A stretch of 64,000 nt of DNA from an uncultured Gemmatimonadales bacterium (GTDB taxonomy: Bacteria; Gemmatimonadota; Gemmatimonadetes; Gemmatimonadales; GWC2-71-9), in contig CAWHFW010000005.1 in NCBI GenBank assembly GCA_963828735.1, positions 992,001-1,056,000 of the forward strand. The letters are read 5' to 3'. Positions within the stretch are counted from its first letter, which is position 1. Every line of letters starts with the position of its first letter. Positions 177-6,742 of this stretch are shown here, piece after piece. Made by a program: the position numbers and the translations under genes. The notes under the pieces are model-generated. The model did not search any database. It saw only the letters and a list, made by a program, of their open reading frames with translations, and was not told the DNA's origin.

Positions 177-404
177 ATGATCGGGGTCATCATGGAGGGT
201 GCGCTGTTCGTCGCGCTGATCGCGACGGTGGCCGCCCTCCTTTTCTATGCCCTGGTGCGATGGACGCTGCTCGGCCTGCGACCAGGGGCTTCGCAGCTGG
301 CGCGGGACACTCTGTCATCCCCGGGCGCGTCACAGACCGCGCCCGTCGCGGGCTCCATCATGGCAAGGTGCTGTTCCCGCTTTCGCGAAGGAGTTCAGCC
401 ATGA
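177..404 (+). CDS. small membrane protein, hypothetical
   Basis: GAAGGA before ATG; hydrophobic N-terminus MIGVIMEGALFVALIATVAALLFYALV; stop overlaps next start (ATGA). Confidence 0.4.
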   Translation: MIGVIMEGALFVALIATVAALLFYALVRWTLLGLRPGASQLARDTLSSPGASQTAPVAGSIMARCCSRFREGVQP

Positions 405-1171
405 TCCGCCCCGCGTCTCTCATCGCTACCGCCCTGATCCTCACTCTCCAGGCGTGCGACGCTCGCGCCCCCACGGGCCCCACGACTTCCCTGCCCGGGG
501 CCACGCCGGTCGATCCCTCCGCCGCGACGGCCGACGTCCGGACGAGCATCAACCCACCGTTCGATCCGTCGAACTTCGTGGCCGCGATCACCAATCCCTA
601 CCTGCCGATGACTCCGGGCACGCTGTTCCACTACCGGAGCGAGACGCCCGACGGCGTGGAGATCAACCTGGTCCGCGTCACCCGCCAGACGAAGCAGATC
701 CTCGGCGTGACGGTGACGGTCATCCACGACCAGGTGTTCCTCGACGGGGACCTGACCGAGGACACCTTCGACTGGGAGGCGCAGGATCGGCAGGGGAACG
801 TCTGGTACTTCGGTGAAGACTCGAAGGAGCTCGAGAACGGCCAGGTGGTGAGCACCGAGGGATCGTGGGAGGCGGGCAAGCAGGGGGCGCATGCGGGTGT
901 CATCATGTTCGCGCACCCGCAGCTGGGCAAAGCCTACGTGCAGGAGGACGCTCCCGACGTCGCGGAGGACCGGGCCAAGGCCCTGAGCCTCAAGGCCAAG
1001 GTGGACGTCCCGTTCGGCCACTTCCAGAACTGCCTGCACACCCAGGAGTGGACGCTCCTGGAGCACGACCGCGAGCACAAGTTCTATTGTCCGGGCGTCG
1101 GGCTGGTGGAGGAGAGGCATCCGGCCGGCGGGAACATCACCAACGAGCTTGTGGCGATCACGCACTTCTGA
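401..1171 (+). CDS. hypothetical lipoprotein
   Basis: AAGGAG RBS; signal peptide ending LTLQAC; strong GC3 codon bias. Confidence 0.8.
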   Translation: MIRPASLIATALILTLQACDARAPTGPTTSLPGATPVDPSAATADVRTSINPPFDPSNFVAAITNPYLPMTPGTLFHYRSETPDGVEINLVRVTRQTKQILGVTVTVIHDQVFLDGDLTEDTFDWEAQDRQGNVWYFGEDSKELENGQVVSTEGSWEAGKQGAHAGVIMFAHPQLGKAYVQEDAPDVAEDRAKALSLKAKVDVPFGHFQNCLHTQEWTLLEHDREHKFYCPGVGLVEERHPAGGNITNELVAITHF

Positions 1172-1297: not shown

Positions 1298-2976
1298 TCA
1301 CCCCTCTCCCTTCGGCTCGACCGGAAGCCCAGCCTCCTTCCACGCCACCCATCCCCCGATCAACGCTCTCGCCTTCTTCCATCCCGCTCGACGAAGCTCT
1401 CGCGCCACCCGGGCGCTTGTGGCCTCGTCCTTTCACATGCAGTAGAGGACGAGGGTGGCGTTGGGGTCGAGTCGTCGTTCTCGCGCCAGGCGAACCGCGT
1501 CGTCCGGTGGAAAGCGGAGCGCCCCGACGCCGATGCCCGGCTCGTCGCGGTAGCTCCGCTCGGTGCGGACGTCGAGCACGACGATCGGCTCACCCGAACG
1601 GTGGAGGTCGCGGAACTCCTGGATCGAGATCTTCTCCGGCACCGGCGCGGCGTCGGCCGGGCGCGTGGGCGCCGGTGCCGGGCGCGAGGGCGTCACATGC
1701 GTCTGCGTGTCCGCGAGCGACGGGCGCGTGGCCACCGTGGCCGGGACCTCGGACTCACCCCCGGACGGTGGCGCACCCGTCCCCGCGCCCCCGTGGCGCA
1801 GGAGATAGAGCGCGATCCCGCCGCCGTGGATGACGACCGAGAAGAGCACCACCAGGCAGGTGATGGTGAAGAGCTGCTCGGCCCCGGGCACGCCCGCGAA
1901 CACGGGCAACAGCACCAGCAGCAGCGAGCTCAGCCCGCGCGGCCCGAACGTGGCGATGAGGCGGCGGCTCCGGTCGTCTACACCCGACCGGCGAAGCACC
2001 GGGAGGAGCACCAGGGTACGCATCGAGAGGGCCACTGCCGCGAACACGAGCATGCGCCAGTCGCCCGCGAGGGAGAGGCCAGTCCAGATGAGCCCGGTTC
2101 CAAAGGCGACGAACGCGAACAGCAGGAACATCTCCGCTGACGCCTCGCCGTAGTCGGTGAAGCAGTCGCACAGCTCGACGTCGATCGCCGCGATGACGAG
2201 CCCCGCCGCGAACGCCGCCAGGAACCCGCTGCCGCCCACCGCCTCGGCGGCCGCGTACGCCGTGAACGCGACGCCCAGCGCGTAAAGCGATTCGTAGTCC
2301 CGCCGCACGCCCACCTTCTTGCGGACGGTGTCGAGCAGCGTGATGGCCACCCAGCCGGAGAACACGCCGAGCATCGGGCCGAGGAGGAAGAGGCCGACCG
2401 CGTGCCTTCCGATCTCCCACGCGGGCGCCGCGATCCCGGCCCGAAGCAAGAGCATGCACAGCACCACGATCGGGAGCAGGATCGACGTCGTTCATCCCGC
2501 TCTCGAGCCGGAGCGCGAGCTTGGCCGAGGGCAGCACCGCGGGGTGGCGCATGAGGGTCCGCAGCAGGACCGGATCGGTCGAGGCGAGCGCCGCGCCGAG
2601 GAGGGCCGCGGCGGGCCAGCTCAGGTCGAGCAGCAGCCGCGCGAGCGAGCGTGATGAGCGCCGCGGGGAGGAGGGTTCCGGGCCCGAGGATGAGCGCCGC
2701 GAGTTTCCGCTGTTGGCGCACCTGGCCGATGTCCACGCCGATGGCGTCGGTGAACAGCACCAGCACCAGCGCCAGCGTCGCGATGACCTGGAGCATCGGG
2801 GAATCGAGCGTCAGCTCGACCACGCCGAAGCCGGCCGGGCCGAGCGCCGCGCCGACAAGCAGGAAGATCGCGACGAGCGGCAGCCCGGTCCGCTCCACGG
2901 CGCCCGAGAGCAGGGACGAGATGATGATGACGATCCCGACCAGGGCCAGGAGCGCGGTGAAGCCCTCGTGAGTCAT
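1298..2976 (-). CDS. CPA1/NhaP-type cation:proton antiporter with C-terminal rhodanese domain; in-frame TGA at 1433-1435 (candidate selenocysteine); two +1 frameshifts (~2644, ~2483)
   Basis: Motifs LFTDA, ALASTDPV, LESGMND, GSGFLAAF, FGPRG across three frames. Rhodanese VLDVR...VLYCM-TGA-KDEATSARVARELRRAGWKKARALIGGWVAWKEAGLPVE continues to a TGA at 1298-1300. Confidence 0.8.
1402..1416 (-). promoter_or_regulatory. candidate bacterial SECIS hairpin
   Basis: GCGCC-CGGGU-GGCGC stem-loop with G-containing loop starting about 21 nt after the UGA. Confidence 0.5.
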
Positions 2977-3132: not shown

Positions 3133-4035
3133 TCAGGGCAGTCCGATGACGCTGCCCACGCCGGCGTAGGTGTACTGTTCCTTCCAGGTCTTCTTGAATC
3201 TGTAGAACGCCGGCTCCCCAGTGCAGTGGCCCGGTGCTACGCGGTCCACCTTGTAGGTGTCGTGGAGGGCGGTCGCGATGCGCGCGATAACCTCGTCCGG
3301 AGCCGCCGGCAGATGGAATCCGCCAACTACCATGTGCACGTGCCGGTCAATGGCGGTTGACGCCTCCACGATCTTCTCGATTCCCGGATGCGAGCACCCA
3401 ACCACCACGACCATCCCTTGTGGCGTCTCCAGGGCCAGTGACAGTTCGCGCAATTCCTTGGTACCAACCGCGTCGGAGACGAGCGAGATGATGTGCACGC
3501 CAGGGGCCACTTCGAGCGTCGAATCGACCGTCACGAATGTACCCTTGGGCCAGGCCGTACCGAATGCGAGAGTGTCCGCGGGATGGCCGTCGTAATATCG
3601 CATCTCCTCGGGCAGCGAGTCTTGTTTCCGGTAGAACGTGCTTGGCAGCGCGCTGCCGAACACGCCGAATGCCTCCTTGGGCGCGTAGATTTTTACCGTC
3701 GGGTTGACGCTCAACAAATAGGTGAGACCCGCCGTGTGGTCGAGGTGGCGATGCGAGATGACGACGAAGTCCAGCTGCTTGAGGTCAACGCCTGCGGCCT
3801 TGACGTTCTGGGCAAAGATCGACGGGTTGTTGCCGGTGTCGAACAGGATGCGCTTCCCGCCGTGCTCGATGAGGGCGGAATACCCCCAGTCCTTTTTCAT
3901 TGTCGGAGACTTCCCAAACGCGTCGTACAGAATGGTGACGCGATTCACCGGGTCCGCCAGGCGCTCGTGCAAGGTGTACCCGCTAAGCAGCAGCACGAGC
4001 GCAAGCGCTGCCATGGAGCCGTGCCGGTAAGACAT
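3133..4035 (-). CDS. MBL-fold metallo-hydrolase (DHPS-like subgroup), exported
   Basis: LFDTG, SHRHLDH, GCSHPG, GGFHL, GHCTG motifs; signal peptide. Confidence 0.85.
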   Translation of the reverse strand: MSYRHGSMAALALVLLLSGYTLHERLADPVNRVTILYDAFGKSPTMKKDWGYSALIEHGGKRILFDTGNNPSIFAQNVKAAGVDLKQLDFVVISHRHLDHTAGLTYLLSVNPTVKIYAPKEAFGVFGSALPSTFYRKQDSLPEEMRYYDGHPADTLAFGTAWPKGTFVTVDSTLEVAPGVHIISLVSDAVGTKELRELSLALETPQGMVVVVGCSHPGIEKIVEASTAIDRHVHMVVGGFHLPAAPDEVIARIATALHDTYKVDRVAPGHCTGEPAFYRFKKTWKEQYTYAGVGSVIGLP

Positions 4036-4152: not shown

Positions 4153-4413
4153 ATGGACCCACTGTTTTTTCCCACCGCCGTCGTCACCATCCTCATCGCC
4201 GCCATGGGGATATGGGGCGCAGTCAAGATCGCGAAGATTATAGCCCACAGCCGCGTCGGCGGGGACCCTGACACCGCTGCCCATCTCCAAGCGTTGGATC
4301 AGGAGGTGGGGACACTCCGGCAGGAGATGGTCGAGACGCAGGAGCGGCTAGACTTTGCCGAACGGCTGCTGGGGGAGGGACCGAAAACGCGCCGAGTGGA
4401 ACCGCAGCGCTAG
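4153..4413 (+). CDS. small membrane protein with coiled coil
   Basis: GAGG RBS; TM helix then QERLDFAERLL. Confidence 0.7.
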   Translation: MDPLFFPTAVVTILIAAMGIWGAVKIAKIIAHSRVGGDPDTAAHLQALDQEVGTLRQEMVETQERLDFAERLLGEGPKTRRVEPQR

Positions 4414-4610: not shown

Positions 4611-6092
4611 ATGTCCACGAGCGAGCCGTTCGGCACCGCCCTGCTGCTGGCCACCGCCGGCGCCTTGATGACCGCGAGCGTCCTGTTCAGCCGGGCGTCA
4701 CAGCGGATCGGGGTGCCGATCGCACTGCTGTTCCTCGTGATCGGCATGCTGGCCGGGTCCGAGGGCATCGGCGGGATCGACTTCGACGATTACCGGTTCG
4801 CCTACCGGCTCGGCTCGGTGGCCCTGGCCCTGATCCTGTTCGACGGCGGCCTCAACACCCCGCTCGCGGCGCTCCGCCGCACTTGGGCGCCGGCCTCGGT
4901 GCTGGCGACGGTGGGCGTCGTGCTCACGGCACTGGCGATCGCGGTGCCGGCCCACGCCTGGGGTCTGGCGTGGCCGCAGGCGCTCGTGCTCGGCGGGGTC
5001 GTGTCCTCCACCGACGCCGCGTCGGTGTTCGCCGTGCTGCGCGGGAGCGGACTCCAGCTCAAGCGGCGGGTGGGCACCACCCTCGAGCTCGAGTCGGGAC
5101 TCAACGATCCGGTCGCCGTCATCCTCACGGTCACCCTCACCGCGAACCTGCTCCATCCCGTCGCGGCCGAGCCGGCGCGCGTCGCGGTCGAGGTCGTGCT
5201 GCAGCTCGTGGTGGGTGCGGCGCTCGGGATGGCGATCGGGCGCGGCGGGCGCGAGCTGCTGCGCCGGAATCCGCTCCCGAGCGGCGGACTCTACCCCGCG
5301 CTCACGCTCGCGCTCGCGCTCCTGGCCTATGGGGTCACGACGCTGCTCCACGGCAGCGGCTTCCTGGCGGTCTACCTCGCCGGCATGATCCTGGGCAACG
5401 CGCCCCTTCCCTATCACGCCGGGCTGCTGCGGGTGCACGATGCGCTCGCGTGGCTGGCGCAGATCGGCATGTTCCTCGTGCTCGGCCTGCTCGTGTTTCC
5501 GAGCGGGCTGCTCGAGGTGGCGGGTACCGGGCTGGGCCTGGCGCTGGTGCTCGCGATCGTGGTGCGGCCCGCGATCGTGGCCCTGTGCCTGGCGCCGTTC
5601 CGCTACCCATGGCGGGAGACGGTGTACATCGGCTGGGTCGGGCTGCGCGGCGCGGTGCCGATCGTGCTCGCCACCTATCCGGTGCTGGTCGGGGCCCCGG
5701 GCGCGGATCGGATCTTCCACGTCGTGTTCTTCATCGTCGTGGTGAACGCCCTGGTGCCGGGCGGCACGGTAGCGTGGGCGACGCGGAGGCTCGGCCTCCA
5801 GACCTCCCAGCCGCCGGCCGCGCAGGCGGTGCTGGCGATCGAGTCGCGCCTGCCGCTCGAGGGCGAGCTCCTGTCGTTCTACATCGACGAAGCGCTGGTG
5901 GTGGCGGGGATCCCGCTCGAGGAGCTGGACTTTCCGGATGGATCCTCGGTCATGCTGATCGTGCGCGGGAATCGGCTGGTGCCGCCCAAGGGCTCGACGA
6001 CGCTCGAGCCGGGGGACCACGTCTACCTGGTCACGCAGCCGGAGGACAAGCCGCTCATGCAGCTCATGTTCGGCCGGCCGGAGGAGGAGTAG
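4611..6092 (+). CDS. potassium/proton antiporter (CvrA/NhaP2-like) with TrkA-C domain
   Basis: LFDGGL, SSTDAASVF, ELESGLNDP, WVGLRGAVPIVLA; C-terminal RCK-C. Confidence 0.9.
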   Translation: MSTSEPFGTALLLATAGALMTASVLFSRASQRIGVPIALLFLVIGMLAGSEGIGGIDFDDYRFAYRLGSVALALILFDGGLNTPLAALRRTWAPASVLATVGVVLTALAIAVPAHAWGLAWPQALVLGGVVSSTDAASVFAVLRGSGLQLKRRVGTTLELESGLNDPVAVILTVTLTANLLHPVAAEPARVAVEVVLQLVVGAALGMAIGRGGRELLRRNPLPSGGLYPALTLALALLAYGVTTLLHGSGFLAVYLAGMILGNAPLPYHAGLLRVHDALAWLAQIGMFLVLGLLVFPSGLLEVAGTGLGLALVLAIVVRPAIVALCLAPFRYPWRETVYIGWVGLRGAVPIVLATYPVLVGAPGADRIFHVVFFIVVVNALVPGGTVAWATRRLGLQTSQPPAAQAVLAIESRLPLEGELLSFYIDEALVVAGIPLEELDFPDGSSVMLIVRGNRLVPPKGSTTLEPGDHVYLVTQPEDKPLMQLMFGRPEEE

Positions 6093-6214: not shown

Positions 6215-6742
6215 ATGTCCATCGACTGGCACGAGCTGCTGGTCCCGTCCGTCAGCCTTGCGGAGCTCGTGCTCCGCGGCTCGGCGATGTACCTCTTCAT
6301 CCTCGCCGCGATGCGGCTGTTCCGCCGCGAGGCCGGCGCGCTCGGCACGGCCGATCTCCTCGTCATCGTGCTCGTGGCGGACGCCGCACAGAACGCGATG
6401 GCCGCCGAGTACCACTCGCTCACCGAGGGCGTGGTGCTGGTGGCAACGATCTACGGGTGGAACTACCTGCTCGACTGGCTGGCGTTCCGCTCGCCCGCGG
6501 TCTACCGGCTGCTCAACCAGGCGCCGCTGCCGCTCGTCCGGGACGGGCGGGTCCTCCGGAAGAACATGCGCTCGGAGATGCTCACGCTCGAGGACCTGAT
6601 GGAGCAGCTCCGCGAGCAGGGCGTGGAGCGGGTGGCCGACGTGAAGCGCTGCTTTCTCGAGTCCGACGGGCGGCTGAGCATCATCCGGCGGAAGGACGAC
6701 GACGGCGACCGGCCGCCCGACCGGGAGCGCGCCACCACCTGA
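6215..6742 (+). CDS. DUF421 (YetF) family membrane protein
   Basis: 3 TM helices then LVRDG...EQLREQG...LESDGRLSII. Confidence 0.85.
   Translation: MSIDWHELLVPSVSLAELVLRGSAMYLFILAAMRLFRREAGALGTADLLVIVLVADAAQNAMAAEYHSLTEGVVLVATIYGWNYLLDWLAFRSPAVYRLLNQAPLPLVRDGRVLRKNMRSEMLTLEDLMEQLREQGVERVADVKRCFLESDGRLSIIRRKDDDGDRPPDRERATT

Follow-up and report, generated by a model that had tools for sequence, protein, structure and literature searches.

A predicted selenocysteine rhodanese domain fused to an NhaP-type cation/proton antiporter in Gemmatimonadales, with a possible role in redox gating of ion exchange

Introduction

Among proteins of solved structure, those most similar in sequence and in fold to the antiporter described here, which is encoded in a 64,000-nucleotide stretch of DNA from an uncultured Gemmatimonadales bacterium (the window), are PaNhaP (4cz8) and MjNhaP1 (4czb). 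All three have the same ion ligands as well as the motifs TDP, ND and GPRG, at about 20% identity between the fusion antiporter and the solved proteins. PaNhaP and MjNhaP1 lack the Cys-x-Cys motif (CxC) that the fusion antiporter has in helix 10, where PaNhaP has His292 and Glu290, and they lack a C-terminal redox domain. The top NCBIfam match of the membrane domain is the CvrA/NhaP2 K+/H+ antiporter (PRK05326), but the fusion antiporters score 133-139 bits, below its cut-off of 355, and are not members of that family; CvrA moreover carries a TrkA-C tail, whereas the fusion antiporter has none and ends in a rhodanese domain instead. A functional analogy for the gating proposed below is found in KefB and KefC, glutathione-gated K+ efflux systems of the CPA superfamily in which a cytoplasmic domain ties transport to thiol status, and KefC is also among the fold matches. 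Both belong to the CPA2 family and use a KTN domain with non-covalent binding of glutathione; to our knowledge they contain neither selenocysteine (Sec) nor a rhodanese domain, and no covalent relay has been proposed for them.

The other partner of the fusion is a rhodanese-like domain with a C-x-U active site, U being Sec. This type is catalogued as “rhodanese form 3” or NF041203 in PMC13188914 and also appears in PMC9312934; in the available passages of both sources the substrate of the known rhodanese selenoproteins is left unassigned. NF041203 (rhodanese_LYCAU, “rhodanese-related (seleno)protein”) shares with the fusion domain the rhodanese fold, the LYCxU motif, a single Sec and the existence of Cys homologues. 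It is the best rhodanese model in every protein tested, yet all scores lie below its cut-off of 115 bits, at 82.6 bits for the window domain, 63-95 bits for other antiporter fusions and 59-101 bits over fused and standalone relatives, and it describes 126 aa without a membrane partner, while the window domain is joined to an antiporter of about 390 aa. Classical thiosulfate sulfurtransferases of the GlpE/YnjE type have a six-residue loop from the catalytic Cys, a pattern on which the fusion loop fails: with the first Cys aligned it is two residues longer than that of YnjE, and the GlpE model gives 15.6 bits on the domain against a cut-off of 102. TsoB (NF045694, a rhodanese/DsbD-like selenoprotein) resembles the fusion in joining a rhodanese to a membrane protein but differs in its motif (UxxxxU) and membrane host, and scores 13-33 bits on the fusion relatives. 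Rhodanese domains also occur on DedA, a host other than the antiporter (e.g. PA1209 of P. aeruginosa), and these fusions are mentioned without selenium in passages of PMC12893004.

The Sec rhodanese type is therefore already catalogued, and the new part is the fusion and its proposed mechanism. Neither the antiporter fusion nor any Sec-gated secondary transporter was found described in the literature searched, and papers or catalogue contents outside it may already list the fusion. A term search for “antiporter” and “exchanger” gave 0 hits in the main texts of PMC13188914, PMC9312934, the deep-Sep paper (PMC12013277) and the BSepDB paper (PMC13326102); “antiporter” occurs 0 times in the available part of the GOS paper (PMC2398784), and the list of Sec-containing transporters in the available text of the review (PMC13188914) names no antiporter. 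NCBIfam holds no model covering the antiporter-rhodanese fusion.

Architecture of the fusion gene

The fusion gene starts at 2976 on the minus strand and, in the assembly, its coding sequence passes across three frames on account of two one-base insertions (Table 1). If intact, its product would have about 558 aa; a near-identical intact database protein (P0003) has 513 aa, with its C-terminal end at the TGA. According to an earlier note on this DNA, the frame that is annotated as stopping at ...VLYCM continues past the TGA and encodes the second half of a rhodanese fold. The frame is indeed open for 44 codons, up to a second TGA at 1298-1300, and read-through yields a Pfam Rhodanese match (cut-off 22.2 bits) where the truncated protein gives none.

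Table 1. Features of the fusion gene in window coordinates
Feature	Position	Strand	Basis
Whole gene: CPA1/NhaP-type cation:H+ antiporter, linker and CxU rhodanese domain	1298..2976	minus	
Antiporter membrane domain PF00999, in three assembly frames	1802..2976	minus	Pfam pieces
Ion-binding motif span	2487..2757	minus	PaNhaP alignment; roles from passages of PMC4381880
Ion-binding motifs LFTD; ASTDP; ESGMND	2757-2746; 2585-2571; 2504-2487	minus	
Cys-Asp-Cys dithiol, cytoplasmic start of helix 10	2162..2170	minus	alignment, homologue model
FGPRG motif, unwound helix 12	1934..1948	minus	alignment
Pro/Ala/Thr-rich linker, length variable, predicted disordered	1622..1801	minus	
Rhodanese-like domain, CxU type	1331..1621	minus	PF00581 36.2 bits; NF041203 82.6 bits (cut-off 115)
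First Cys of C-x-U, classical rhodanese catalytic position	1439..1441	minus	Cys in 60/60 loci
In-frame TGA, predicted to be read as selenocysteine	1433..1435	minus	contig, homologue conservation
SECIS upper stem-loop (predicted), 5 bp stem, loop CGGGU at 1411-1407	1402..1416	minus	pairing, covariation, folds
SECIS lower stem (predicted), forms in window copy	1429-1422 with 1397-1390	minus	
Extra base, frameshift 1, probably assembly error	2646		absent from X1, X5, X6 contigs
Extra base, frameshift 2, probably assembly error	2482		absent from X5, X6 contigs

The membrane domain scores above the PF00999 cut-off and has an NhaP-like fold, as judged from a profile search and from a model of the Cys homologue P0135, whose best fold match is 4cz8; the family profile matches both PaNhaP and MjNhaP1. 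Its ion motifs are equivalent to Glu73, Thr129/Asp130 and Glu154/Ser155/Asn158/Asp159 of PaNhaP, the ion-binding residues being taken from passages of PMC4381880. Equivalents of the ion ligands and of the Glu154/Arg337 pair are present, with Asp at the Glu73 position; the acidic residues of the site are invariant in 20/20 rows, and Ser159 is found in at least 90%. An antiporter with such a full ion-binding site probably exchanges Na+ or K+ for H+, as far as motifs can tell. In three relatives (P0135, P0137 and L073) GPSG replaces GPRG. The disorder assigned to the linker stems from the P0135 model, in which pLDDT falls below 50 at residues 405-442.

Evidence for selenocysteine at the in-frame TGA

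Contigs from 4 of 23 sequencing runs were compared with the locus. The earlier note had allowed for a base-call error at the TGA, and this can be ruled out because a single short-read contig (run X1) spans 1402-1488 with 0 differences, so that the TGA and the hairpin behind it are real sequence. The one RNA run compared (X15) has short pieces only, none of them covering the TGA, and thus speaks neither for nor against expression.

A search of the 151 genomes of the window's family matched 27 genomes, with a TGA in 30 of the 31 matches listed, and scanning genome contigs yielded 49 loci, 45 of which are antiporter fusions; in an acidobacterial class, 19 of 201 genomes matched, and 18 of these have TGA fusions. 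Half of the family-search loci (15 of 30) have an antiporter upstream, the window locus among them, and together with the 45 contig-scan fusions they form a pool of 60 loci drawn from Gemmatimonadales and Acidobacteriota, in all of which the TGA is present (58/58 without L020 and L027, which come from the unpublished genomes G134 and G014). A second sample was drawn without regard to the tail, antiporter motifs alone serving to pick the best 80 of 540 metagenome loci. Of these, 7 ran off the contig; the rhodanese domain is present in all 73 complete loci, where the Sec column holds TGA in 68 and Cys in 5. Tabulating the homologues at this column, as the earlier note had proposed, thus gives TGA or Cys throughout both sets, and full-length Cys-form proteins are also found in the databases. 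The note's placing of the TGA at a Cys position needs a refinement: the TGA does stand at a Cys position, that of the second Cys of CxC, but the classical catalytic Cys is the first one, which aligns with the active-domain Cys of YnjE domain 2. Among single proteins, P0134 has Gly at the Sec site and P0249 has lost the second Cys. As DNA the fusion was seen in Gemmatimonadota and Acidobacteriota; by source names it also occurs in Chloroflexota and Actinomycetota, the names including Thermomicrobiales, Nitriliruptor and Rubrobacter.

The opposing view takes the TGA for a genuine stop, or for an error of sequencing, and regards the 44 codons downstream as untranslated. It can point to the 118 of 120 best database homologues that terminate at YCx, i.e. 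at the TGA, and to a hairpin that is unremarkable in the window alone. Yet the protein sequence past the TGA is conserved among homologues with synonymous variation, and no in-frame stop occurs within 38 codons of the TGA in any of the 60 loci, as compared with 28/60 and 12/60 in the other two frames. Furthermore, the stop at the site is always TGA and never TAA or TAG, Cys orthologues are known, the hairpin covaries and the X1 contig confirms the bases, all of which makes termination or error at this codon highly improbable. The 118 truncated homologues would then mean that public gene calls cut off the Sec domain. Reading of the TGA as Trp or Gly under an alternative code was rejected, as TGA terminates ordinary genes of the window and the homologues have Cys at the site.

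The GCGCC-CGGGU-GGCGC hairpin that the earlier note described is present, its loop starting 21 nt past the UGA. Folding of the window copy alone is unexceptional (z of -1.25, with 24 of 200 shuffles folding equally well), and as single-sequence folding is not significant the evidence for a SECIS element is comparative. All five stem pairs are formed throughout the 60 loci (300/300), with a loop of CGGGT or CGTGT, and codons 6, 7, 9 and 10 past the TGA are fixed, unlike the codons on either side, which vary although their residues are just as conserved. Covariation was tested on 34 of the 60 loci (33 distinct, two unpublished ones omitted): 165/165 cells are paired, three of the five pairs show compensatory changes, a result that 0 of 500 shuffles reach, and slid registers drop to 19-72% paired, although tests of this kind are inflated by the relatedness of the loci. 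Some of the compensatory changes swap two amino acids together (Ala to Thr with Ala to Val), a sign that the RNA itself is under selection. The full stem is found in 57 of 63 distinct TGA metagenome loci but in only one of five Cys loci, where the loop is different; in the other four Cys forms the stem is broken. The same stem and loop, a pattern derived from the family itself, stand behind only 10 of the 100,713 TGA triplets of the genome, the window's included. Passages of PMC13188914 give as limits for bacterial SECIS elements a loop of 3-9 nt, a stem of 4-16 bp, a spacing of 16-37 nt, a G in the first two loop positions and a minimum free energy (MFE) of at most -7.5 kcal/mol. The hairpin lies within these limits, with a loop of 5 nt, a stem of 5 bp, G at loop position 2, a spacing of 21 nt and an MFE of -7.6 kcal/mol in its minimal form, or -21.1 kcal/mol with the lower stem.

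The source genome (4.78 Mb in 7 contigs, 97.5% complete) also has the machinery that the earlier note had suggested looking for: selA, selB, selC and selD were all found above their cut-offs, selA and selB being frameshifted in the assembly and selD being a Cys form. Two intact genes for Sec formate dehydrogenase-like molybdoenzymes (G000:C5:2560955-2564074 and C5:22542-24404) have an in-frame TGA and a SECIS whose loop, GGTCT, differs from the CGGGT of the fusion gene. Among relatives, selA occurs in 14 of the 15 fusion genomes of the family and in all five Acidobacteriota tested. Across the family as a whole, however, 132 of 151 genomes have it, so that Sec use looks near-universal there and co-occurrence with the fusion hardly discriminates; as a discriminating test it was dropped. 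At the other end, the family search matched 0 of the 9 selA-negative genomes that are at least 90% complete, too few to count; a TGA rhodanese is found in three selA-negative drafts, two of which have selB, and in the fusion-bearing genome G134 (81% complete, unpublished) none of selA, selB and selC was found.

Taken from comparative sequence data, these observations allow the prediction, with high confidence, that the UGA is decoded as selenocysteine via SelB and tRNA-Sec under the guidance of the hairpin 21 nt downstream. The protein is almost certainly a real, widespread and mis-annotated selenoprotein, a domain-fusion form of the known Sec rhodanese type.

Frameshifts in the assembly

The assembly does contain the two indels that the earlier note had reported, an additional base at 2646 and another at 2482, and neither is found in P0003. 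Contigs from three runs lack the first and contigs from two runs the second, which lies outside the coverage of X1. Between the two insertions the window differs from P0003 in 9 of 53 residues, compared with 5 of 458 elsewhere, as would be expected for a poor or mixed-strain consensus. Frameshifts are also seen in selA (two, G000:C2:304867-306146), selB (one, C2:157206-159039), gyrA (two, G000:C5:1434211-1436554) and topA (one, C5:1110599-1112135).

These shifts raise the question of whether, within a family of true selenoproteins, the window copy has become a pseudogene, in a strain whose use of Sec is being lost. In favour of decay, three of six Sec-related protein genes (the fusion gene, selA and selB) are frameshifted, compared with 14 of 387 background orthologues, the latter counted by a method that misses shifts near gene ends; in addition, the contigs without the extra bases stem from related strains, which are not shown to be the source strain. 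However, gyrA and topA are frameshifted in the same assembly. Intact genes are found for selC, for selD and for the two Sec formate dehydrogenase-like enzymes, which also keep their SECIS hairpins, and the catalytic motifs of the window gene are intact as well. Together with the contigs and P0003, the shifts in gyrA and topA and the uneven divergence favour assembly error: both indels are probably errors of this kind, and a decaying gene is improbable. The Sec result at the level of the family is independent of the indel question.

Possible functions of the Sec domain

The helix-10 CxC holds the sole invariant cysteines of the antiporter, with both Cys in 20/20 rows, and adjoins the position of Glu290/His292 of PaNhaP. 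In PaNhaP, according to passages of PMC4381880, helix 10 lines the cytoplasmic funnel and carries an allosteric dimer-interface switch. The motif lies on the cytoplasmic side, as does the C-terminus of the antiporter, and a flexible linker together with this shared side would tether the Sec domain beside a dithiol at a regulatory site. The CxC column is covered by 124 of 150 representatives; both Cys are present in 27 of 29 rhodanese fusions and in 46 of 47 fragments or others, but in only 8 of 48 full-length unfused antiporters, 14 of which have one Cys and 26 none. This contrast is one of a clade against an outgroup, and as the profile was also built from CDC-bearing rows the counts are not independent. 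One or two Cys are also found at the site in 22 of 48 unfused relatives, and P0206 has lost the helix-10 CxC although it still ends at YCA. A quick tree sets 14 rhodanese fusions, two AhpC fusions, P0312 and one unfused row apart from 47 unfused rows, with an SH-aLRT of 93 for the split, below the starred level.

In the mechanism proposed here, an NhaP-like (CPA1) cation/H+ antiporter would carry a tethered cytoplasmic rhodanese-fold domain with Sec in its active-site loop, and the C-x-U loop would act as a thiol/selenol redox or persulfide relay onto the helix-10 Cys-x-Cys. The change in the state of the dithiol would then turn ion exchange up or down with the redox or sulfane-sulfur state of the cell. 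Contact between the two motifs is something that we infer; a complex prediction with two antiporter domains and one rhodanese domain (Cys form P0135) scored 0.11 against a mark of 0.32, which gives no verdict on it. As the comparisons are among kin, with the fused antiporters on one side of the tree, covalent gating of exchange by the CxU loop via the dithiol is given about an even chance, and it is ranked ahead of the two readings that follow.

Alternatively, the thiols and the selenol could be ligands of a soft metal or metalloid, such as species of Cu, Hg, As, Se or Te, in which case the two CxC motifs at the dimer interface would form the site and the CxU domain would load, sense or remove the ion. 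This would agree with the location of PaNhaP helix 10 at the two-fold axis (passages of PMC4381880), with a 2026 review in which most of the transporters predicted to contain Sec are connected with resistance to heavy metals or metalloids (passages of PMC13188914) and with weak matches to the rhodanese ChrE. It is nevertheless unlikely, given that the Na+/H+ site is intact, that the only conserved neighbour identified is a K+/H+ antiporter gene, and that the other neighbour clusters, read by eye only, hold none resembling a metal-resistance gene.

Rather unlikely, too, is a Sec domain that works as an independent sulfur/selenium transferase or thiol oxidoreductase and is merely anchored at the membrane, with the host Cys pair serving as resolving or electron-relay thiols and ion exchange being unregulated. 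The long disordered linker would suit such an enzyme, the first Cys stands at the classical catalytic position, and the domain also occurs on DedA proteins and, apparently, alone: the same genome family has CxU rhodaneses without a fusion partner (L032-L035, L037, L039, L041 and L042), in which a TGA is followed by a hairpin like that of the fusion gene. Against this stands the active-site loop, longer than that of YnjE, and the presence of the domain on all 73 complete loci that were picked on antiporter motifs, a coupling which is tight for a mere anchor.

Two further comparisons agree with covalent gating, the preferred reading, which may extend to other hosts. The CxU/CxC domain is fused to DedA proteins at four loci (L031:865-1794, L036:1438-2427, L255 and L089), three with TGA and one with Cys. 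These four have, in the DedA domain, a Cx8C pair that is present in 4/4 fused and 0/44 unfused rows, the fused proteins being close mutual relatives and one of the 44 a fragment (48 of 53 loci were aligned, and three more had been omitted beforehand). Two CDC antiporters (P0168/P0304 and P0172) have, in place of the rhodanese, an AhpC/TSA-like tail that ends in F[YF]RGHW, the motif after which a Cys normally comes next. They are known as truncated proteins only, without DNA, and one cluster member is named Anaerolineae. From the shared F[YF]RGHW end, this tail is probably a second Sec fusion. A metagenome scan for the corresponding DNA gave rhodanese fusions or off-contig loci only, a protein search returned P0168 itself, P0312 (a close antiporter without the AhpC tail) and an unrelated redoxin but no further fused member, and a motif search of the genome and the collected loci gave no true example.

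Tentatively, then, the CxU rhodanese may be a portable Sec redox actuator for unrelated hosts, NhaP-type antiporters and DedA proteins, each with a cytoplasmic Cys pair, which could be swapped for a peroxiredoxin-like domain and which in the antiporter would gate covalently. If this were true, the pH and the ion balance of the cytoplasm would be coupled to the state of peroxide or sulfane sulfur, in bacteria that are abundant in soil. The fusion partner in any case provides a candidate target, the dithiol of a regulatory helix, and ion exchange as a read-out, which opens the function of this Sec family to direct tests, with the natural Cys forms in E. coli too.

Gene neighbourhood

A gene for a CvrA/NhaP2 K+/H+ antiporter (4611-6092, plus strand), a true PRK05326 member, lies divergent from the fusion gene. 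Such a neighbour is found in 20 of 26 loci from Gemmatimonadales, in 0 of 19 from Acidobacteriota and in 2 of 80 from metagenomes. In the window, an MBL-fold gene (3133-4035, minus strand) and a small ORF (4153-4413, plus strand) separate the two antiporter genes; as neither was found in 125 related loci, they are probably a local insertion. A DUF421/YetF gene follows at 6215-6742 (plus strand). On the other side, a lipoprotein-like ORF at 401-1171 (plus strand), without a Pfam or NCBIfam match, is convergent with the fusion gene. No conserved operon was found: of the neighbours in the window, the MBL-fold gene, the DUF421 gene, the lipoprotein-like ORF and the small ORF were found in 0 of the 125 related loci. 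Directly past the stop of the fusion gene, a long imperfect hairpin occupies 1181-1300 (-64.6 kcal/mol). Contig depth at 1264-1327 far exceeds that of the fusion gene in three DNA runs, which suggests a multicopy extragenic repeat.
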